Source: a virus (Duplodnaviria > Caudoviricetes). From it: a stretch of 38,228 nt of DNA. The translations under genes were made by a program, and so were the position numbers. Positions 3,086 through 36,357 of the stretch are shown in pieces; the first letter of the stretch is position 1, and each line of letters opens with the position of its first letter. The stretch lies in the IMG/VR virus record IMGVR_UViG_3300008117_000123, positions 1 through 38,228 of that record; one strand, 5' to 3'. Under the pieces are notes generated by a model, which was given only the letters and a program-made list of their open reading frames with translations, was not told the DNA's origin and ran no database searches.

Positions 3086-3235
3086 ATGAGCAAAAAAAGA
3101 ATGATGTCAAAACAACAGCGGCTATATTACGAATATCAAAACAAGGAAAAAATTCGGCAGGAATTGATAGAATATATAAAGTTACAAAGAGAAGTCGACC
3201 AATTAAAAGATTACAGGAAAAATAATGTTATTTGA
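3086..3235 (+). CDS. Hypothetical 49-aa basic/helical protein (not in ORF track)
   Basis: AGGAG at 3076-3080 then ATG. Translates as MSKKRMMSKQQRLYYEYQNKEKIRQELIEYIKLQREVDQLKDYRKNNVI* and overlaps the rSAM start. Confidence 0.55.
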   Translation: MSKKRMMSKQQRLYYEYQNKEKIRQELIEYIKLQREVDQLKDYRKNNVI

Positions 3236-4676
3236 AATACACGCTGAAAAATCAAAAGATGATAAGAAAATATTTTATTATGATAACATGAGCAATATTT
3301 TAAAGGACGCCAATGGTATCGTATATGAATATCCGCAACCAATTGAAATTCCTAAAGAATACACAAAACCATATAAAGCATTTAATAAAAACAATCCTTT
3401 AAAGAAATCAAAGTTAATCACAACACTTAAAATTCAAATGGGATTAAGTTGTAATTATTCTTGTGATTATTGCTCACAAAAATTTGTTGAACGTATGCCT
3501 GAAACATCTAAAAAAGACATTGATGCTTTTATGAAAAAATTAGAAGTTTTAGAATTTGATGAAAGTAAAGGATTGAAAATAGAATTTTGGGGTGGTGAAC
3601 CATTTGTTTATTGGAAAACAATGAAACCACTAGCAGAATTGTTGGCAGAAAAATTTGAGAATTGGGAAAGAAAACCAAGATTTTCTGTTATTACAAACGG
3701 ATCTATTCTTACAGATGATATTATTGATTGGTTGATGATGTATGATTTTGATGTGGCCATTTCACATGATGGACCTGGTCAATCAGTTCGTGGGCCAGAT
3801 CCGTTTGACGATCCTGAACAAAAAGAAAGAATATTGGGTTTTTATAGAATGATGAAACGTTTGGGTAAAGTAATAAGTTTTAATCCTATGATGAACGCAA
3901 AAAATAGAAGTCGTAAAGAAGTTTATGAATGGTTTGTGAATTTAACTGGTGATGAATTTGTAACACTAGGTGAAGGAGGTATCGTAGATGCTTACGATGA
4001 AGAAGGAATTTCAAATTCTTTACTAACAAAAAAAGACCATTTTGAATATCGAAGAACGGCTTTTGCTGACATATTTTCCACAGGCGGCAAAATTGGATTC
4101 ACTATTCCAAAAGAAAAAACGTTTCAATTTACCAAAAGTGTTCTTGCTCACCGAAAATCGGATTTTTTAGGTCAAAAATGTGGCATGGATGAAGAACAAG
4201 CTTTAGCTGTAGATTTGCGTGGTAATGTAATGACGTGCCAAAACGTAAGTTCTCTTGAAATGTCAAAAAATGGCGAGTCGCATCACGGAGGTACATTAGA
4301 AGATTATGATAATGTATCAATTAAATCATCAACACATTGGTCGAACCGTAAAGAATGTTCTGGTTGTCCTGTACTACATATTTGTAAGGGTGCCTGTATG
4401 TTTTTGGATGAAAAATTTTGGGACATATCTTGTGCAAATTCATATTCGGATAACATACCATTTTTTGTTTTAGCTATACAGGATATAACAGGTTATATAC
4501 CAACACTCATAAAAGGTGATGGTCTACCACTCGAAAGGCAAGATATTTTTGGTACAATTTACGAACATAAGGAAGATTTGAAAAAGAAAATTATACCTAT
4601 CAAAATAATTAGTGAGAAGATTGGTGTGATTGAAGGTGTCGAAATTTACGGAAAATCCAAAGTAGAAACAATATAA
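3225..4676 (+). CDS. Radical SAM enzyme with SPASM domain (peptide/protein maturase type)
   Basis: CNYSCDYC (CxxxCxxC, nt 3450-3473), WGGEP, ITNG and SHDGP motifs. C-terminal SPASM cysteines: KCG...GNVMTC...CSGCPVLHICKGAC...SC. Confidence 0.93.
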   Translation: MLFEIHAEKSKDDKKIFYYDNMSNILKDANGIVYEYPQPIEIPKEYTKPYKAFNKNNPLKKSKLITTLKIQMGLSCNYSCDYCSQKFVERMPETSKKDIDAFMKKLEVLEFDESKGLKIEFWGGEPFVYWKTMKPLAELLAEKFENWERKPRFSVITNGSILTDDIIDWLMMYDFDVAISHDGPGQSVRGPDPFDDPEQKERILGFYRMMKRLGKVISFNPMMNAKNRSRKEVYEWFVNLTGDEFVTLGEGGIVDAYDEEGISNSLLTKKDHFEYRRTAFADIFSTGGKIGFTIPKEKTFQFTKSVLAHRKSDFLGQKCGMDEEQALAVDLRGNVMTCQNVSSLEMSKNGESHHGGTLEDYDNVSIKSSTHWSNRKECSGCPVLHICKGACMFLDEKFWDISCANSYSDNIPFFVLAIQDITGYIPTLIKGDGLPLERQDIFGTIYEHKEDLKKKIIPIKIISEKIGVIEGVEIYGKSKVETI

Positions 4677-4679
4677 ATA
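4672..4679 (+). promoter_or_regulatory. T4-type late promoter TATAAATA
   Basis: Perfect gp55 consensus overlapping the rSAM stop codon, 27 nt before the ATG at 4707. gp33 is encoded in the window. Confidence 0.75.
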
Positions 4680-4706
4680 CTGAATAATAAAGATTAGGAC
4701 GTAAAA

Positions 4707-5654
4707 ATGACATTACCATCATCTGGACCAATATCCGTATCGCAAATTAATCAAGAAATTGGTCAATCATCAACATATTCTAGTGATTTAAATTTTTTAA
4801 ACAATTTAGTGTTGCCGTCTATACGACCAGGTACTCCTAATATGGCTGGATTTTATGGCCTAAGTTATTTTCAAAAAAATACTGCAGGAAATTGCAACGG
4901 CACGGGAATTAATAATTGCTGTGAAAACTGCGCTTCAGGAAATTGTCCTGTAGTTGACCCATCAAATTGTAATTGTGGATGCGGTGATCAAAGTCAAAAT
5001 TGCCATGTGTGTGCTAATTGTGGAGCTATTAATTGTGCAAATTGTGATAGCCAATCATGGTTACAAACAGGAAATTGTAATCAACAACCGCCACCAACAT
5101 ATAATTGTACAAGTTTTCAATGTTATGCTCAAGCTTGTAATTGTTCAAAAATTATTTGTCATAAATTATATCAACTCGGTATGATGCCCCATGATATTTT
5201 TTATGCTGACCAAAAATATGGTAATTGGTTGAGAGAAAATGATCCAGAAGTTTATGCTGGTTATATTCGTTGGGCTCAAGTTATTGTTGATGGCATGGAA
5301 GGCAAATCTCCGGACTTTATGCTTTGGATGTCCAAAGATGAACGTAAAAAAGCTGAAAAACAAAAATTTATTAAGTGGGCTCACCGTATAGCAACTCCTT
5401 GGTCGCAACATATGGCTTATATTATGAATATTGTGAATAGAGATAATGATATTGGCCGTATATTGATGCGTGTTGGTCGACCAATTAGCCGTTTGGTAGG
5501 TAAGTTACCAAATAAAAATAAACCAGTTGGTTTATTGACCGTATATTTTATTTGGATTACATTTGCGGGAACATATTACTCAGCAGAAATTTATTCTAAA
5601 ATAGTTAAATTATTTAATAATAAATTATTCATAAGGAAAAAATACAATGAATGA
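4707..5654 (+). CDS. Cys/Asn-rich protein with virion-type N-terminus; putative rSAM/oxygenase substrate
   Basis: N-terminus MTLPSSGPISVSQINQEIG. Residues 62-146 hold 18 Cys, 13 of them in Asn-Cys dipeptides. C-terminal KIIC..LY..G...GY..WA domain followed by a hydrophobic helix and a basic tail. Confidence 0.75.
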   Translation: MTLPSSGPISVSQINQEIGQSSTYSSDLNFLNNLVLPSIRPGTPNMAGFYGLSYFQKNTAGNCNGTGINNCCENCASGNCPVVDPSNCNCGCGDQSQNCHVCANCGAINCANCDSQSWLQTGNCNQQPPPTYNCTSFQCYAQACNCSKIICHKLYQLGMMPHDIFYADQKYGNWLRENDPEVYAGYIRWAQVIVDGMEGKSPDFMLWMSKDERKKAEKQKFIKWAHRIATPWSQHMAYIMNIVNRDNDIGRILMRVGRPISRLVGKLPNKNKPVGLLTVYFIWITFAGTYYSAEIYSKIVKLFNNKLFIRKKYNE

Positions 5655-5973
5655 AAATGAAATCGTCATCGAGAGAGATTTATTGCATGAGTATGTTGAT
5701 TACTACTTCAACAATATTTTTTTCAATGCAATACTAAATTTACCTGAAGAACAACGTGCAAACGTCTTTACCATGTTAACAACTCATGTGAATGTGTTGT
5801 CCGAATTATTAAATGCTGGCAATCACCCGATATTGGACCACATCAAAGGCACACCATGGCAGACAGCAAACACAGCTTCGGAAATGAGTACAGAAGTTCG
5901 AATTAATCGTGAGCAAGCACAACCTTTGATTATGGCATATGATGAGTGGAAATCAAATAGAACAACTGAATGA
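5647..5973 (+). CDS. Hypothetical protein within the modification cluster
   Basis: 108-aa ORF, AAGGA upstream, overlaps both neighbours. Confidence 0.7.
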   Translation: MNENEIVIERDLLHEYVDYYFNNIFFNAILNLPEEQRANVFTMLTTHVNVLSELLNAGNHPILDHIKGTPWQTANTASEMSTEVRINREQAQPLIMAYDEWKSNRTTE

Positions 5974-6664
5974 CCGTGAAAAGTTTCACTGGTATCAAAA
6001 TGCGCAAAACTTATTTTGGAAATCTCCAATATGGGAAGTTCAAACAAAATTTAATGCAGAATTCAATAAAAAACTACTAGACGAAATTTATAGTATAGGT
6101 TATGGCATCGCCACTGGCCAAGATAAAAAACCAAAAGACAGCATATGGGATTATGACAAGCCCAATCTAAACATTATCAAACAAGAAATTATTGATATTG
6201 TTACAAAAACAATAACCCAACAAATTCCAGAAATCAGAATGTTAAACCTTAAAGGTTGTGAGCACTTCTTTGGCTGGGTTAATGTGCATGAACCGGGAGA
6301 AGGTTTAGAAGTACATGGCCATACAGAATCCGCTATTGCGGCCACATATTACATACAAGCACCAGAAGGATGTGGAGAGTTGGTACTATTTGACAGTTCC
6401 AACGCAATTGATTGGAAAAACACCACTTTAACCGGTACGCCTGTAGTGAAAGAACGAAGAATCAAACCTATTGAAGGTAAATTGGTCTTTACACCATCAT
6501 ATGTTCTTCATGGTGTAACGGAGAATAAATCAAATGATTTACGTATATCTTTATCTACCGATTTACGAAAGGTGGTTGACAAAAACACCAATAATACTGT
6601 AATATTAAAAAGTTGGGCCAGTCGAATGAAAAAAATTAAAGAATGGAAATGTTCACAAAGTTAA
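5939..6664 (+). CDS. 2OG-Fe(II) oxygenase (TIGR02466-like)
   Basis: WVN...VHGH...ATYY...GELVLFD...EGKLVFTPSYVLHGV...RISLS. Confidence 0.85.
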   Translation: MMSGNQIEQLNDREKFHWYQNAQNLFWKSPIWEVQTKFNAEFNKKLLDEIYSIGYGIATGQDKKPKDSIWDYDKPNLNIIKQEIIDIVTKTITQQIPEIRMLNLKGCEHFFGWVNVHEPGEGLEVHGHTESAIAATYYIQAPEGCGELVLFDSSNAIDWKNTTLTGTPVVKERRIKPIEGKLVFTPSYVLHGVTENKSNDLRISLSTDLRKVVDKNTNNTVILKSWASRMKKIKEWKCSQS

Positions 6665-7182
6665 ATTATGAGTTTTCTAAACCCATATATGCCGTTACAC
6701 AGGGGTTGAATACGTTTACGGGTGTTGATAATAAAGGTATAGATTATAAAAAGATATGGTCACCTGAACCCGAAATAATGTATAAGATTTTACCTAAAAA
6801 ATATTGGGAAGATTTTTATTTAACTGTTATGACCATCAATCGAAATATACCACCACATACAGATAGTGATATATTAACCACAATTAATTTTTACATTGAA
6901 ACTGATAACTGTAAAACGATATATTATGAACCTTTGGTAGATGATTTGCAGATATTTCAAATAAAAAATCAAACAAATGGATTCATATACAAAAAAGAGC
7001 AATTAAAAGAAGTTGGTAGTTTCGTGGCACAACCAATGGAAGTTTGGGTATTAAATGTTAAGAAAATTCATAGTGTCGAATCGGATAAAGAAGAACCTTT
7101 TAGAAAAGCCGTAACTTTAGGCACAAGAAAACATAATTATGAATCGGTGTGTGAGATGTTAAAAGAAACTGGATGTCTATGA
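6643..7182 (+). CDS. Putative 2OG-Fe(II) oxygenase (DSBH fold)
   Basis: IPPHTD (HxD), distal IHSV and RKAV; INFY strand. Confidence 0.7.
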   Translation: MEMFTKLNYEFSKPIYAVTQGLNTFTGVDNKGIDYKKIWSPEPEIMYKILPKKYWEDFYLTVMTINRNIPPHTDSDILTTINFYIETDNCKTIYYEPLVDDLQIFQIKNQTNGFIYKKEQLKEVGSFVAQPMEVWVLNVKKIHSVESDKEEPFRKAVTLGTRKHNYESVCEMLKETGCL

Positions 7183-7808
7183 ATATAATTCGTAATGATT
7201 GGTGGGTGACACCGGTGTGGGAAATACAAACAGATTTTGATGAAAAATTTAATGATAATTTATTAAGTGAATTGAAATATTTTTACACAGATGAAAAAAT
7301 TAAAAATATCAAAGATTCTAATATATGGGTGATGAATACACCTTATGTAAAATCATTAAATGATTATATAATTAAAATGGTGACAGAACTTACTTATGAT
7401 TATGTTGCAAAAAATTATGATGAATATGAATTTCATCACACAAGAGGTTGGGTTAACTATAGTTTACCTGGACAATCCATGGCAATACATGATCATGGAG
7501 GTAGTAAAATAACAGCAACATACTATATACAAACAGATGATGATTGTGGTGACCTATTATTAATTGATCCCCGTGGTGGTGTAGATTGGGACAAAGAGGT
7601 TTATAAAAATGTTAATGGAGCTAAATTTAAAAAAATAATACCGAAACCAGGAAAACTTGTATTTTTTCCATCATATGTTTTACATTCTGTAGATGTTAAT
7701 AAATCTAAAAATATGAGAATTTCATTGTCTACCGATATGCAAACATTTTCAACTAATCTATTGAACAATTTTATAGAAATGAAAGAAAAACAAAAAAATG
7801 TGGTATGA
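7173..7808 (+). CDS. 2OG-Fe(II) oxygenase (TIGR02466-like), paralogue of 5939-6664
   Basis: GWVN...HDH...ATYY...GDLLLIDPRG...PGKLVFFPSYVLHSV...RISLSTD. Confidence 0.85.
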   Translation: MSMNIIRNDWWVTPVWEIQTDFDEKFNDNLLSELKYFYTDEKIKNIKDSNIWVMNTPYVKSLNDYIIKMVTELTYDYVAKNYDEYEFHHTRGWVNYSLPGQSMAIHDHGGSKITATYYIQTDDDCGDLLLIDPRGGVDWDKEVYKNVNGAKFKKIIPKPGKLVFFPSYVLHSVDVNKSKNMRISLSTDMQTFSTNLLNNFIEMKEKQKNVV

Positions 7809-8580
7809 AAAATTAGATATTCAATTTGATATTGAAAAATTAAGAAAAGAAGTAGAAGAAAGTGTTTTTCCTCTAGGTGATCAAGTTGTTCAAGGTGAAG
7901 AATTTGAAACACAAAATTATCATGGGTTTGGTGGTTGGAGTATTTTGAGTAGGCGTGGTGATTGGAAAGATGGTTGGGAAGTTGTTCAGCATGAACATGG
8001 ATTAAAATTAGAAAATTTTCTACCGACAAGAGAATTGATTATGAAGTCGTACAAACATTTTAATATTGCTCACAGTTTGGAGCACGATAGACCAACTCAA
8101 GCTTGTGTCGGAGAAATTAAAAAGGTTGTAGATAAATTGAAAGATTTGGGATTTGAACCAAGGCGAGTAAGAATAACTTGTTTACAGCCTCATTGTAAGA
8201 GCTTGGTGCACAAAGATGCTGAAACAACAGATTATATGGCCAGAATACACATACCATTATGGACAAACAAAAAGTGTGTTCATATATGTCAAGGAAAAAA
8301 TTTACATATGCCGGCCGATGGATCAGCATACATTGTTTGGGTGAATTTGTGGCATCAAATTAGAAATGATTCCGATGAGCCTAGATATCATATTATAATG
8401 GATGCTTACGATACTAAAAAAATAACAAAGTTTTTTAAGTATGAAGGTGAATTTCAACAGTTAGAAGATTTCACCAGAAAATTTAGGCAAGATATAGAAG
8501 AAGCGGAGCTAACACAAGAAGATATTGACTTCTTTGAAGCTATTAAAGAGAAATATGTAACCAACTATAACGTAACGTAA
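7798..8580 (+). CDS. Aspartyl/asparaginyl beta-hydroxylase-like 2OG-Fe(II) oxygenase
   Basis: R.RIT.L.P...L.VHKD...RIHIPLWTN...HMPADG...VN..HQIRN....RYHII. Confidence 0.8.
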   Translation: MWYEKLDIQFDIEKLRKEVEESVFPLGDQVVQGEEFETQNYHGFGGWSILSRRGDWKDGWEVVQHEHGLKLENFLPTRELIMKSYKHFNIAHSLEHDRPTQACVGEIKKVVDKLKDLGFEPRRVRITCLQPHCKSLVHKDAETTDYMARIHIPLWTNKKCVHICQGKNLHMPADGSAYIVWVNLWHQIRNDSDEPRYHIIMDAYDTKKITKFFKYEGEFQQLEDFTRKFRQDIEEAELTQEDIDFFEAIKEKYVTNYNVT

Positions 8581-18368: not shown

Positions 18369-18803
18369 CTATAGTCCTAGATGATCTTCTGTTATTAACT
18401 TAAACTCCCAACCACGATCTAAACAATATTCCGTGGCGGCCTTCCATTTGGCTTGATTGATTCCATATGTAACCACCTCATTTATGTATTGTTTTGTCAA
18501 TCGTTTTTTAGTTTCAGGAGTGATTGTTTGTTTCTTAGGTTTAACTTCAAGTAACATTGTTTTCAACACTCCTGTTTTGGTTCTAACTTTAATCAAAAAA
18601 TCTGGAAAGTAACGATGCCACAGGCCATCTTTTGGAGATTTATAAGGAATGATCAATTCTTCTGATGCCCATGATACAATATCTGGATTTTTGTCGAACC
18701 AATTCATCATCTTACACTCCCAAGAAGAGCGATAAATGATATTATTAGGATCCCCAACGTATTTTTGAGGATTAGAAGGTGTGAAACGTCCATTATAAGC
18801 CAT
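18369..18803 (-). CDS. 4: Head completion nuclease gp4
   Basis: MAYNGRFTP.NP.KY.GDP..IIYRSSWE...W.SEE..IPY.SP.D...HRYFPDF...EVKP..QT...NQAKW.AA. True start at 18803. Confidence 0.92.
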   Translation of the reverse strand: MAYNGRFTPSNPQKYVGDPNNIIYRSSWECKMMNWFDKNPDIVSWASEELIIPYKSPKDGLWHRYFPDFLIKVRTKTGVLKTMLLEVKPKKQTITPETKKRLTKQYINEVVTYGINQAKWKAATEYCLDRGWEFKLITEDHLGL

Positions 18804-18810
18804 ATAAATA
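18803..18810 (+). promoter_or_regulatory. T4-type late promoter TATAAATA for the baseplate operon
   Basis: Perfect consensus 30 nt before the gp48 ATG, at the divergence point. Confidence 0.8.
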
Positions 18811-18840: not shown

Positions 18841-19848
18841 ATGGCCATTATTTCCATACCAAATTCTATAGGTGGAGTTTCCATACCTGGAGCCTTAGTT
18901 GAAGGTCCATTAGGTACTCTATTTGGAAATAAATTTGGTCGAACCGATTTACAATACCCTAGAGATTTACAGACATCGACAAGAGGCCATGTTGTTGTAA
19001 TTAATATCAATGAAATAACACCAGCAACATATGAAAGTGTAAAGAGCAGTTTTATTAAAGGTAAAGATAAATTATTTGGTGCTGTTAATAGTGCTGTCAA
19101 TAATGCTGGTAGTTCTTTAGAATCAGGATTAAATGCTGTTACATCTTATGTTGACGATATAAAAAGTGGAAAAATATCACTTGGTGGCGAATTAGATAAA
19201 TCGGTTGCTGGATTGAAAGATTTTCTAGGTAATGACAGTATCAACATTAAAAACCCAACCAAAAAATCTGTTGCCGGAATATCATTGTATATACCAGATA
19301 CGATGGCTTTTACATATTCTGCTTCATACGGACAATTAAGTTTGGTTGACGCTGCTGCTCAGGTACCGGGAATAGGCAGAGCAGTTGGTGCAATCGCTTC
19401 TATTGCTACCAGTGGGCCAGCAAGATTATTGGCCAAGGGTGCCGGATTTGCTTTTAACCCACAACAACAATTATTATTTGATGGTATAGATTTTAGAACA
19501 TATCAGATGGCATTTACATTTACACCATATTCTAAAAAAGAAGCGGAAACAGTTGCAAAAATTGTTAAAATGTTAAAAACACATGCAGCACCACGATTGG
19601 CAGAAGGCACAGCCGGTATGTTTTTTGTACCTCCGTCAACATTTAATTTAGAATTTTTATTTAATGGTAAAAGAAATCAAAATGTTGGCCGAGTTGCTGA
19701 GAGTGTAATTGAAAGTATTGATATCAATTATTCTCCAAACGGATTTTCAACTTTTGGTGATGGTGCACCAGTTCAAACAACAGTAACTATAAATTTCAAA
19801 GAAGTTGAACTCATTACAAGAGAAAAAATAGAAAAAGAAGGTTATTAA
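18841..19848 (+). CDS. 48: Baseplate tail-tube cap gp48
   Basis: LQYP.DL...ISLYIPD...FNP..QLLFDGIDFR.Y...FTFTP.S..EA...INYSPNG...DGAPV...NFKE.EL.TRE. Confidence 0.82.
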   Translation: MAIISIPNSIGGVSIPGALVEGPLGTLFGNKFGRTDLQYPRDLQTSTRGHVVVININEITPATYESVKSSFIKGKDKLFGAVNSAVNNAGSSLESGLNAVTSYVDDIKSGKISLGGELDKSVAGLKDFLGNDSINIKNPTKKSVAGISLYIPDTMAFTYSASYGQLSLVDAAAQVPGIGRAVGAIASIATSGPARLLAKGAGFAFNPQQQLLFDGIDFRTYQMAFTFTPYSKKEAETVAKIVKMLKTHAAPRLAEGTAGMFFVPPSTFNLEFLFNGKRNQNVGRVAESVIESIDINYSPNGFSTFGDGAPVQTTVTINFKEVELITREKIEKEGY

Positions 19849-24901: not shown

Positions 24902-26062
24902 ATGCGTTTTCATATTTTAGGTTTACCACATACTGTATCTTCAAAAGAATATAATGCTTGTGCTTATACACAAAAGGTAGTTAAATTTGGCAAAATGATG
25001 AAGTCGTTAGGCCATACTATTATACACTACGGCCACGAAGATTCAGATTTAGTTTGTGATGAACATGTTACGGTCACCACTAATAAAGATTTAGAAATTG
25101 CTTATGGTGATTATGACTGGCGTAAGAATTTTTATAAATTTGATGTCAATGACCATGCTTACCAAACATTCTATAAAAACGCCATTGTGGAGGTTGGTAA
25201 AAGAAAACAAAAACACGATTTTATTCTTCCTTTTTGGGGATCAGGTGTGCGTCCAGTTTGTGATGCACATTCAGATTTAATTTGTGTTGAACCAGGAATT
25301 GGTTATGCTGGCGGACATTGGGCTCGCTGGAAAATATTTGAATCATATGCAATATACCATGCTTATTATGGAATGACAGCCGTTGGTAGTTGCAAACAAG
25401 ATTGGTATGATGCAGTTATTCCAAACTATTTTGATCCTGATGATTTTACTTTCCAAGAAAAGAAAAAAGATTATTTTTTATTTTTAGGTCGTGTATATGA
25501 TGGTAAAGGTGTAAATGTTGCGGTTCAAGTAACTGAAGCACTTGGTGCCAAATTAATTATTGCAGGCCAAAATTCATTAACTCAAATGGGTTATAAAGAG
25601 ATACCTGCTCATATTACTGAAATTGGTTACGCTGACGTTGAGATGCGAAGAAAATTGATGTCCGGTGCAAAAGCAGCCTTTGTGCCATCAATGTATGTTG
25701 AACCTTTTGGTGGAGTTCAAGTTGAAATGTTGTTCTCAGGAACACCTACAATTACAACTGATTGGGGTTCATTTACAGAAAATAACATACATGGAATTAC
25801 TGGTTATCGTTGTAGAACCTTTGAACAATATTTGTGGGCTGCTAACAATATTCACAATATTAATCCTAAAAATTGTCGTGCTTTTGCTGAAAACTTTACA
25901 TTAGAAAAAGTTGGCAAAATGTATGAGGAATATTTTCAATCTGTTTTAAATGTTTACACTGGTAATGGTTGGTATGAAAGAAATGATGCAAGACTTCAAT
26001 TGAATTGGTTAAAGAAAAATTATCCTCATGAAATGCCTCAAACTATTAAACTAAATAGTTAG
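24902..26062 (+). CDS. GT-B (family 4-like) glycosyltransferase
   Basis: FLFLGR...KG...IIAG...[12 protein letters not shown]...GTP.ITTDWG...E...G.TG. Confidence 0.88.
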
Positions 26063-26101
26063 TTATAGAAGTACGTTTTAAAACAAAGGGGATAGTGAAC
26101 C

Positions 26102-34282
<8,181 letters not shown>

Positions 34283-34283
<1 letters not shown>

Positions 34284-34834
34284 TGCCTAGTATTCAATCA
34301 ATTTTGATGAATAGTATAAACAATGTAAAGTTGAATAATTATCTTGCTGGTTTATTTAAAACCACATATTCGGGATACTTTGCTGATAATGTTAGTTTTT
34401 TTGCAACAGCTACACCAACAACTTTTGGCGCTAACCCAGCAACATCAGTTCAAACTACCGCAATTTCAGAACCAAGTAGTGATGATGGAAGTAGTTTTAG
34501 TGTTCAATGGTTAGGTTATTTTTTACCAAACACAACAGAAACATATACATTTTTTACATCAAGTGATGATGCTTCTTATGTTTGGGTAGGTTCAAATGCT
34601 TTGTCTGGATTTACAACTGGAAACGCAACAGTAAATAATGGTGGGTTACACGGTACTGTTGAAGCAAATGGAACTGCTTCTCTTACAGCAGGTATATATT
34701 ATCCAATAAGAATACAATTTGGTGAGAATAGTGGTGGTGATGTGTTAACATTTAATTATTCCACACCAACGATAACAAAAACAACTGATGTTACCGGTAA
34801 AGTATTTTATAATCCAACAACGAACGGATTTTAA
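34283..34834 (+). CDS. PA14-domain protein (putative carbohydrate-binding)
   Basis: FSVQWLGYF.P..T.TYTF.TSSDDASY.W.G...NNGG.HG...L.AG.YYPIRIQFGE.SGG. Confidence 0.85.
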
Positions 34835-34837
34835 TAA

Positions 34838-35443
34838 ATGCCATTAAAACAAAGTGAACTTGCAAGTAGCGGTTTAGGCCGAGGTGCTACGGGCCCAATT
34901 GGTCCGATAGGTGCAACGGGTTCAACTGGACCAATTGGATCTACGGGTTCAACCGGACCAATTGGATCTACGGGTGCAGGAACAACCGGTGCTACAGGAC
35001 CAATTGGTCCTGTGGGTGCAACAGGTCCACAAGGTTCTACTGGTGCAACTGGTATTCAAGGACCAATAGGTTCAACAGGTGCAACAGGCCCCGTTGGTTC
35101 AACAGGACCGTTTGCAGATACAACAGCAACACTAAACATTACAGGTGTTAATGTTTCAAACATTTATTATTTTACAAATTATGCTCCAAGAAACTTACGA
35201 ATTAGCTATATGTCTGCAACAATAGTAAATGGTTCTGGCACTGCCACAGTAACAATTTTTAATAGTCGTGGCAGTATTGGAAATTTACAATCTGTTCCTG
35301 TTAACAACACGAGTAATAGCTTTAGGGTACCAAATGTGAATTTCAATGTTGCTGTAGGAGAAACTTTGTATGCTAGTATAACTAACAATGCTTTAAGTTC
35401 ATCCAGTGCTGTTTTAGTTATTACTTTAGGATTTTCTTCTTAA
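34838..35443 (+). CDS. Short collagen-like fibre protein with C-terminal beta domain
   Basis: About 25 Gly-X-Y triplets followed by a beta-rich tail. Confidence 0.75.
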
Positions 35444-35448
35444 TTAAT

Positions 35449-36357
35449 ATGCCTGAAATATATATTGACACTGCTGGTTCTCAAAACTGGACTGTTCCAG
35501 CAGATTGGGATATAAAAGCTCCCAATAAAATAGAACTTGTAGGCGGAGGTGGAGGTGGAGGAATCAGTTTAATTTATGAACTTTATACTTTTTTTGATTT
35601 CAACAGCATACCACAAACAAATAGACTTGGCTATAGGTTTTATAATTATGGTTTAGGTGGAGGTGGAGGTGCGTATGCGAGAATTACTAATGTAAATTTG
35701 GTTCCAGGACAAGTTATACCAGTAAGCGTTGGCGGAGGTGGTGAACAAGGTGTTCGTACTGCAATTTACAGTACGACAGGATTTAATAAAATTAATTATG
35801 GTGGTGGTGGTGGATCAACTTTTTTTGGTTCTGCAGAATCGATTATTTTTGTGTCAAGTAGGGCAGGATCGTGGAATATGGATTATATTAGTGGATTTGA
35901 GTCACCTCAAGGTGTCAATCATCAAGGAGGAATTTTTGGAGATCCAAGTAATACCAATAATGTGAAGGTTCCGCCAGGATTTTTGACAACAAGAGTTGAT
36001 TATGGACAAGGGATGAGCCGTAATTACGATTTGTCTTTTCAAATTCCTCCATCATTTAAAACAGATCCATTTAATTTACCAATAAACGGTAGGTGGCCAA
36101 CAGGAGAAAATCCTGCAACTTTTCCAGGTTTTCCTGGAGTTGCACCGGACAATCCTACATTTATAGTAAATCCTAATAATCAATCTTTTATTTATGGTGC
36201 TGGTGGCGCAGGCGAAATAATGCAAAGACCTGGAGGTTTTGCAAGTCCACCCACTCCATCATTTATTGTGGTTCCACCACAACCAGGAAATAAAGGAGTT
36301 ATAAAAATTACTTATGTTAGCACAGGTACTCATCAAAATTGTGTGTGGATATCATAA
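35449..36357 (+). CDS. Glycine-rich tail-fibre/adhesin-like protein
   Basis: WTVP.D...IELVGGGGGGG, GGGGGAY, V.VG.GG, YGAGG.G and G..GVI.ITY motifs. Confidence 0.7.
   Translation: MPEIYIDTAGSQNWTVPADWDIKAPNKIELVGGGGGGGISLIYELYTFFDFNSIPQTNRLGYRFYNYGLGGGGGAYARITNVNLVPGQVIPVSVGGGGEQGVRTAIYSTTGFNKINYGGGGGSTFFGSAESIIFVSSRAGSWNMDYISGFESPQGVNHQGGIFGDPSNTNNVKVPPGFLTTRVDYGQGMSRNYDLSFQIPPSFKTDPFNLPINGRWPTGENPATFPGFPGVAPDNPTFIVNPNNQSFIYGAGGAGEIMQRPGGFASPPTPSFIVVPPQPGNKGVIKITYVSTGTHQNCVWIS

Follow-up and report, generated by a model that had tools for sequence, protein, structure and literature searches.

The window analysed here, a stretch of 38,228 nucleotides (IMG/VR record IMGVR_UViG_3300008117_000123), is part of a freshwater T4-like phage with exonuclease, baseplate and fibre genes, and in it the gene for a radical SAM/SPASM enzyme is followed by one encoding a protein rich in Asn-Cys (NC) dipeptides. 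The question raised by this arrangement is whether the Asn-Cys tract is a substrate of the neighbouring enzyme and, if so, where in the life of a phage the product would act. The original prediction, made from the letters of the sequence, had proposed a precursor in which a virion-docking N-terminus, possibly doubling as a maturase recognition sequence, is fused to a core with xNC as the repeated modified unit. The analysis reported here leads to a related reading that we consider probable, namely that the protein is a fibre-tip adhesin in which an N-terminal domain caps the fibre, the NC core is cross-linked and hydroxylated, and a C-terminal domain is cut off. The anatomy of the protein, the gene co-occurrence, the exchange of its tail and the promoter are read from sequence and the docking comes from structure prediction; the chemistry and the cleavage we infer.

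Extent and architecture of the protein

The open reading frame occupies positions 4707..5654 on the + strand, with its stop codon at 5654, and encodes a product of 315 amino acids; the end previously placed at 5144, which would give 146 residues, was wrong, the frame being open up to 5654. A 747-base contig from an independent run covers positions 4701-5447 with no mismatches and no gaps. The protein has three parts (Table 1): a 55-residue N-domain, the NC core and a 169-residue helical domain, designated KIIC, which had been overlooked at first and is present in 175 of 192 fetched homologues. The homologue search itself yielded 238 homologues among 403 candidates. In an AlphaFold2 model based on an 83-row alignment, the N-domain (residues 1-55) and the helical C-terminal domain are confident and the core is not.

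Table 1 Features of the cassette, with positions numbered from the first nucleotide of the window
Feature	Positions	Strand	Details
Radical SAM/SPASM enzyme, 483 aa, likely maturase	3225..4676	+	PF04055 E 4e-9
T4-type late promoter box TATAAATA	4672..4679	+	27 bases before ATG
N-domain, predicted fibre-tip capping domain	4707..4871	+	Residues 1-55; pLDDT 83-90 over 1-50
Asn-Cys core, likely substrate	4887..5144	+	Residues 61-146; 18 Cys, 13 NC
KIIC C-terminal helical domain, likely removed	5145..5654	+	Residues 147-315
Accessory protein X, 108 aa, conserved	5647..5973	+	65/65 loci with 4 kb downstream
2OG-Fe(II) oxygenase	5939..6664	+	PF13759 E 9e-17; H126-x-H128...H191, triad inferred
Cupin-type oxygenase-like protein	6643..7182	+	H72-x-D74...H143; no Pfam match
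Second 2OG-Fe(II) oxygenase	7173..7808	+	PF13759 E 9e-19; TIGR02466 above cut-off
Asp/Asn beta-hydroxylase-like oxygenase	7798..8580	+	PF05118 E 2.5e-8, above cut-off

The whole ORF gave no family match in Pfam, PHROGs or NCBIfam, and PDB profile searches with the whole protein, the N-domain, the fibre tip and KIIC returned chance-level rows or none. Foldseek searches of the PDB with the models of the whole protein and of KIIC likewise found no match at E <= 0.001; a missing structural match does not by itself mean a new fold. The top matches in VIA-align were NEL-type E3 ligase domains, for the whole model (Z 7.2, rmsd 3.0, 107 aligned) as well as for KIIC alone (Z 4.9, rmsd 3.5, 86 aligned), and they were rejected as a common helical arrangement because the scores fall below the tool's range for helical folds and the identity is 5-9%. 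Contigs from four freshwater metatranscriptomes match parts of the cassette and are not counted as evidence of transcription.

The Asn-Cys core

A recount of residues 62-146 gave the 13 NC dipeptides among 18 cysteines that had been reported, with all of the named motifs in place. When this segment was shuffled 100,000 times the maximum NC count was 10 and no shuffle reached 11; among the 214 window ORFs of at least 30 amino acids, a threshold of at least three NC in 30 residues is reached by ORF 4707 only. In 166 distinct homologous cores, the residue preceding Cys is Asn in 79% of cases, Ala in 11%, Gln in 6% and Asp in 1%. The number of cysteines in full cores ranges from 12 to 32 (one 25-residue core fragment among the 166 has five) and is odd in 77 of the 166. 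The comparison of NC conservation with that of the spacers, suggested at the outset, thus came out as foreseen, the Asn before Cys being kept while the spacing varies. Since the number and parity of the cysteines and the spacers all vary, the selected unit appears to be Asn-Cys and not a set of fixed pairs.

These observations bear on the alternative that the core is an unmodified adhesin domain, stabilized by disulfides or by Zn or Fe-S, with the enzymes of the cassette acting elsewhere. The 18 cysteines, with their CxxC and CxC spacings, might bind metal or form disulfides, and T4-like phages often carry 2OG oxygenases (phrog_81). However, a zinc-finger or all-disulfide core is weakened by the variable cysteine number and parity, and the Asn before Cys is conserved rather than the spacing. 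Moreover, no confident fold was obtained for the core, in which the pLDDT is below 50 over residues 57-114 and 123-147 despite the 83-row alignment, and the enzyme follows NC tracts across unrelated carriers and is absent beside NC-less KIIC proteins, as described below. An unmodified core is therefore regarded as improbable, and modification of the core as the preferred reading.

The radical SAM/SPASM enzyme and its association with NC tracts

The enzyme encoded upstream carries the CxxxCxxC motif of the radical SAM domain at C76, C80 and C83, with PF04055 above its cut-off, and seven SPASM cysteines (C319, C338, C378, C381, C387, C391 and C403), with TIGR04085 at 33.5 bits against a cut-off of 27. 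All ten motif cysteines are invariant in 39 enzyme sequences. None of the cut-offs of the named maturase equivalogs (PapB, CteB, QhpD, TIGR04463 and others) was reached, the best scores being 86.8 bits against 340 for NF047865 and 48.2 against 525 for TIGR04463; for this reason thioether chemistry is proposed by analogy only.

The association between enzyme and NC tract was found in both directions. Of 98 distinct precursors in the fetched loci, 92 have room upstream, and in 91 of these a radical SAM gene lies at most three genes upstream. Starting from the enzyme only, an NC tract was present in 64 of 80 genome loci (47 of the 48 with full flanks) and in 63 of 80 viral loci (42 of the 48 with full flanks); combined, 89 of the 96 full-flank enzyme loci have one, and in the other seven no NC tract was found at the threshold of at least three NC in 30 residues. 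Among 115 distinct NC proteins beside the enzyme family, the N-domain is present on five and KIIC on two, most of the 115 being tail-fibre-type proteins with a C-terminal (NC)n ladder; in many related cassettes there is no more than a short (NC)3-5 ladder. Seen from the side of KIIC, the enzyme is absent from the loci, taken up to 6 kb on each side, of all 59 KIIC ORFs that lack NC (nine of the 59 are weak matches in the next downstream gene), in contrast to five of five with NC. The reverse search and this separation indicate that the enzyme follows the NC tract and not the flanking domains, and on the latter ground KIIC was rejected as the element recognized by the enzyme. The idea of xNC as the unit acted upon by the radical SAM enzyme gains support from this two-way co-occurrence as a putative assignment, and what the enzyme recognizes is most likely not the N-domain but the (NC)n ladder at the end, the sole feature common to all substrates.

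The family has cultured carriers, namely phage JWF and, by way of prophage-like loci, isolates of Polynucleobacter and Limnohabitans. In the Achromobacter phages JWF and 2-1, a 44%-identical enzyme is encoded two genes behind a fibre whose end is a ladder followed by a Hint domain, and in Ralstonia phage RSP15 the enzyme lies three genes after a side fibre with a shorter NC tail.

As a general rule, recognition of the substrate through the N-terminus did not hold, since only five of the 115 NC proteins beside the enzyme family carry the N-domain, which is absent from the other 110; what stands of this proposal is some room within one sub-clade. In an enzyme tree (FastTree, midpoint root; thinned at 80% identity to 76 of 263 sequences, plus that of locus L228), the JWF type is the sister group of a single clade that takes in all 31 enzymes with an N-domain substrate. 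The support for this clade is 0.86 with L228 and 0.97 without it, and it is this common clade that leaves a place for a leader role. That the N-domain doubles there as an enzyme-recognized leader, which would be compatible with the explanation preferred here, also has a parallel in CrpA, the N-terminal domain of which serves enzyme binding according to the available text of PMC13692751. Nevertheless, we find it unlikely: the domain is missing from most substrates of the family, the sister clade included, co-inheritance alone predicts a single clade, and the domain also exists without NC core or enzyme, as in Rhizobium phage Pasto, where the protein with the N-domain lacks an NC core and the 7.6 kb examined contain no annotated radical SAM gene.

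Three further observations concern the enzyme family and its neighbours. A K-K-I-I-P-I-K tail motif at enzyme residues 454-460 is kept in the family, including JWF and RSP15. RSP15 gp046 (L175:7162-7992), encoded immediately before the radical SAM gene, is oxygenase-like by eye and has no Pfam match. The jumbo phage RP12 (L178:4114-10069) has three annotated radical SAM genes beside virion genes, with no NC tract in the five neighbouring ORFs that were translated.

The downstream oxygenase genes

The genes following the NC protein form a conserved cassette: in the 65 loci with 4 kb of downstream sequence, protein X and the Asp/Asn beta-hydroxylase-like (AspH-like) gene occur in all 65, the cupin-type gene in 64 and a 2OG-Fe(II) oxygenase in 57. 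Protein X reaches no Pfam cut-off, has no ESM Atlas match and gave no match to the accessory proteins encoded by JWF and RSP15. The cupin-type family has PHxD in 103 of 113 homologues, one homologue matching PF05118 weakly. The backbones carrying the cassette are T4-like (51), podo-like (13), terminase-linked (11) and unassigned (23). One or two genes of the fatty-acid-desaturase family are inserted in 30 of 98 loci (for instance L121:7253-7987 and L042:7261-7962) and are absent from the window, and larger cassettes of the L073:7178-9306 type have an extra B12-binding radical SAM enzyme and a further Asp/Asn hydroxylase-like gene. No protease or transporter gene was identified among the cassette orders listed.

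The four oxygenases of the window are likely to add hydroxyls to the NC core, although they could act on other substrates. Their number and type would also be compatible with a different end product, in which the core would be modified into a metal-binding tip, with modified Cys and beta-hydroxy-Asn holding Fe or Cu, that mimics a metal carrier for an uptake receptor. Beta-hydroxy-Asp and beta-hydroxy-Asn chelate iron in siderophores, and a metal tip would account for the presence of four genes of the non-haem-iron oxygenase type, among which the Asp/Asn beta-hydroxylase-like one occurs in every one of the 65 loci; the optional desaturase-like genes and the B12-type radical SAM enzymes of some cassettes likewise point to tailoring beyond cross-links. 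Against it, the seven-Cys SPASM pattern fits thioether-forming enzymes such as CrpC, the ladder of many related cassettes is just a short (NC)3-5 one, and in JWF no annotated Fe/2OG oxygenase gene adjoins the enzyme. We judge a metal-binding tip to be unlikely and retain a cross-linked, hydroxylated core.

The N-domain and the fibre tip

The likeness of residues 1-55 to small fibre or adhesin proteins, as originally proposed, was borne out by hhalign (96.6%, E 5e-10) against the product of the gene behind the tail fibre of phage Pasto; single-sequence E-values are weak. Among cultured phages, to which the examination of N-domain genes without NC was confined, relatives of the domain are encoded directly after tail-fibre genes in Pasto, PhiImVa-1, MS02 and MinM2 and are placed elsewhere in Vibrio 1.081.O and PA5oct. 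The fibres before N-domain genes end in G-N-[IV]-[TS]-A-Y (G-N-I-S-T-T in MinM2), often just before an S74 domain. A fibre gene with the G-N-[IV]-[TS]-A-Y end directly precedes the N-domain gene in Pasto, PhiImVa-1, MS02 and the prophage-like loci L182, L183 and L228, and 13 distinct podo-like fibres encoded before the radical SAM gene have the same end. S74 fibres were found in three of five T4-like carriers searched, with an N-I-T-A-Y-Y end in five of six such fibres; one complete carrier genome has neither a fibre-tip nor an S74 match, and the 38 kb window has no fibre with the tip motif, a near-identical record being rated 23% complete. In the Polynucleobacter and Paraburkholderia prophage-like loci L182 (5558-5953) and L183 (5530-5985), a short form of the cap lies between an S74 fibre and the enzyme.

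A complex was predicted for the homologue L135, the N-domain of which is 60% identical to that of the window. Three copies of L135 fibre residues 30-83 with the L135 N-domain scored 0.83, the best of three controls scoring 0.02; the mark for this score is attained by 116 of the 157 solved pairs and by 2 of the 215 mismatched ones, counts that apply here only roughly. At least 95% of the contacts recur between runs, the partner has a pLDDT of 86, and the contacts join fibre residues 75-82, which form the tip motif, from all three chains to N-domain residues 7-12, 23-29 and 41-45. The score may be owed to likeness to a solved complex. This model supports the binding of one N-domain to the tip of the fibre trimer.

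The gene is also preceded by TATAAATA, which we take to be the T4 late promoter consensus. The window contains two matches against five expected by chance, so that only the position and conservation of the box count. It lies within 80 bases of the gene in 35 of 51 T4-like loci and in none of 24 podo-like or terminase-linked ones, and in the T4-like loci it is absent before all of the other 296 genes compared, which code for X, oxygenases, desaturase-like proteins and exonucleases; 6 of 46 radical SAM genes have it. The second match in the window, at 18803-18810, stands just before a structural gene at 18841. Gene position, late promoter and the predicted homologue complex together favour virion docking through the N-terminus, as first proposed.

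The word precursor, understood as the source of a released peptide, is on the other hand unlikely to apply, because the core stays joined to a fibre-capping domain or is itself part of a fibre. Excision of the core at both ends, to give a diffusible RiPP acting as antimicrobial or signal, would agree with the RiPP-cluster-like gene order and with the position of the core between two other domains, but the cassette orders listed include no identified protease or transporter gene, in most relatives the tract forms the terminus of a fibre, and the late promoter and the predicted fibre binding point to the virion. We consider such a released product very improbable; display of the core at the fibre tip is preferred.

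Elsewhere in the window, positions 24902-36357 encode a glycosyltransferase followed by collagen-repeat fibres of 1581 and 1144 amino acids, the second with Mtd_N, together with a GLEYA/PA14 protein and a Gly-rich protein; fibre glycosylation in this region is possible.

The KIIC domain and the exchange of end modules

KIIC is found in 1,473 clusters at E <= 0.001. Cys151 is kept in all 136 and Asp168 in all 145 aligned KIIC sequences, and the model is all-helical with a pLDDT of 89. The window KIIC has a moderately hydrophobic helix at residues 274-292 (best stretch 1.26), and a strongly hydrophobic 19-residue stretch occurs in 82 of 104 long and 3 of 31 short forms of the domain. In the best 149 KIIC matches the domain is C-terminal, mostly behind a Gly/Pro linker, and is carried by gp5-like (by eye), DUF4815 and Gly-rich fibre proteins, sometimes after Hint. 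In the ESM Atlas only unnamed viral clusters under 0.9 were found.

The end module of the NC proteins is exchangeable: besides the 175 of the 192 fetched homologues that end in KIIC, four end in S74, one in another module and ten in none, and two are without core. S74 follows the N-domain and NC core in P0124, P0133 and P0149, above the PF13884 cut-off, and in P0126, below it, and Hint ends the related NC-bearing fibres of JWF, 2-1 and L259-L266. Forms without any end domain, also present in genomic DNA with stop codons (L182, L183), indicate that KIIC is dispensable. In Pfam, the window protein has neither a PF13884 match with the Ser-Asp-x-x-Leu-Lys start of Peptidase S74 nor a Hint match, and its KIIC fold is all-helical, not all-beta as for Hint. 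Hint is a self-cleaving domain. S74 is a self-cleaving end domain as well, described as trimerization-dependent in the available text of PMC11058221. The slot that KIIC shares with these two self-cleaving domains suggests, by analogy, that KIIC is removed from the protein. The trimer dependence of S74 fits poorly with a cap that is monomeric, as the four S74-bearing forms would be.

Several other arrangements of these modules were seen. In P0246, P0270 and P0304 (also P0219), Hint is directly followed by KIIC at the end of Gly-rich virion-type proteins. In L347-L363, around 6417-7300, the gene after many KIIC-ended proteins encodes a divergent KIIC-like domain with weak profile matches. P0151 (around 130-267) has the N-domain and NC core followed by a different Cys-led domain with a hydrophobic tail. 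In the cultured cyanophage SynMITS9220M01 (L012:6669-8519), a Gly-rich protein encoded after a fibre gene has a poly-Pro/poly-Arg linker and KIIC.

Proposed maturation of the cap protein

The favoured sequence of events would begin with synthesis of the protein late in infection as a virion part, which the gene's sequence context makes very probable. A single N-domain would, with the same high degree of confidence, bind the three G-N-[IV]-[TS]-A-Y ends of the fibre trimer in the manner of S16 gp38, as modelled for the homologue. The two-way co-occurrence makes it likely that the enzymes of the cassette modify the NC core; for the bond itself, a thioether between Cys-S and Asn-C-beta in the style of NxxcB, suggested by analogy, the chances seem about even. 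The prospects are similarly balanced for KIIC to hold or chaperone the protein, perhaps at the membrane, until it is finished and to be removed at the CNC-S/KIIC junction by means of its Cys and Asp, a step derived from the exchange with S74 and Hint. The modified core would then be the host-contact end, displayed by the N-domain cap.

A wider hypothesis, which we regard as doubtful in its entirety, is that phages use RiPP-like, thioether-cross-linked and hydroxylated cages as swappable fibre caps and receptor ligands, such as metal-carrier mimics, and that KIIC represents a third class of self-removing end domains beside S74 and Hint, helical, Cys/Asp-driven, often membrane-tethered and present in more than 1000 virion protein families.

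If the proposed maturation is correct, the host range of a large group of freshwater phages would rest on enzyme-made chemistry that is invisible in sequence, and heterologous expression of a fibre gene alone would overlook the modification. Radical SAM thioether chemistry would extend to virions, beyond bacterial peptides and cellular proteins, and the enzyme would be one that places a series of links on an (Asn-Cys)n tag transferable between proteins. The N-domain is a common unannotated phage domain, to which its predicted pairing with G-N-[IV]-[TS]-A-Y would assign a function. KIIC, too, lacks an annotation, although it ends many baseplate and fibre proteins.

Comparison with known systems

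In our searches of the literature we met no account of this system; phage proteins may be among the CrpA homologues compiled with PMC13692751. The main text of PMC13692751 contains no mention of 'phage', 'tail' or 'Asn', the available text of PMC10288494 none of 'phage', and a cyanophage radical SAM enzyme appears in that of PMC12801897 only as an antibiotic gene.

As described in PMC13692751, CrpC installs ranthionine (thioether) links on the Cys-rich protein CrpA of Methanococcus voltae. The phage system resembles CrpC/CrpA and QhpD/QhpC in that a seven-Cys SPASM radical SAM enzyme is encoded beside a Cys-rich protein and that the thioether substrate, putative here, is a protein and not a short peptide. 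CrpC/CrpA, which has an RRE, differs in being cellular, whereas the phage system combines a putative virion fibre-tip substrate containing Asn-Cys units with additional oxygenases and an end domain that can be exchanged. According to the available text of PMC9389541, NxxcB joins Cys-S to Asn C-beta in one link. The likeness to NxxcB/NxxcA and SycC (PMC9389541, PMC10989515, available text) lies in the proposed use of a radical SAM enzyme to connect the Cys sulfur to the Asn beta-carbon, and in the tolerance of NxxcB for Ala, Gln and Asp, which in the phage cores rank after Asn at the position before Cys (11%, 6% and 1%, respectively). The NxxcB system differs in its single link, short bacterial peptide and N-x-x-C spacing, whereas in the phage core Asn is adjacent to Cys and the unit is repeated about 13 times. 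Ranthipeptide-type RiPPs have a short precursor, a released core, a protease and a transporter, in contrast to the 315-residue three-domain protein described here, with no protease or transporter gene identified among the cassette orders listed.

The closest structural parallel to the cap is S16 gp38 on gp37 (PDB 6F45; PMC6851490, available text), in which a single small N-terminal domain caps the trimer through three pseudo-symmetric contacts and carries variable cargo. The N-domain is predicted, on the homologue L135, to share the 3:1 fibre:cap stoichiometry of S16 gp38, but gp38 uses three Trp at helix apices (PMC6851490), whereas 56 aligned N-domains have no conserved Trp, and the cargo is polyglycine in gp38 and Asn-Cys in the phage cap protein. 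The N-domain has no sequence match in Pfam or the PDB, gp38 included; weak Foldseek rows included two 'Gp38 domain-containing' phage proteins (E 0.45 and 1.2, over 51-54 columns). At the other end of the protein, KIIC occupies the same C-terminal slot as S74 and Hint, its profile matches neither, and it differs from them in being all-helical, with an invariant Cys, Asp and Gly-Tyr and often a hydrophobic tail helix. While the system belongs to no named maturase family nor, on present tests, to gp38, it resembles the chemistry of CrpC and QhpD applied to a gp38-like cap.
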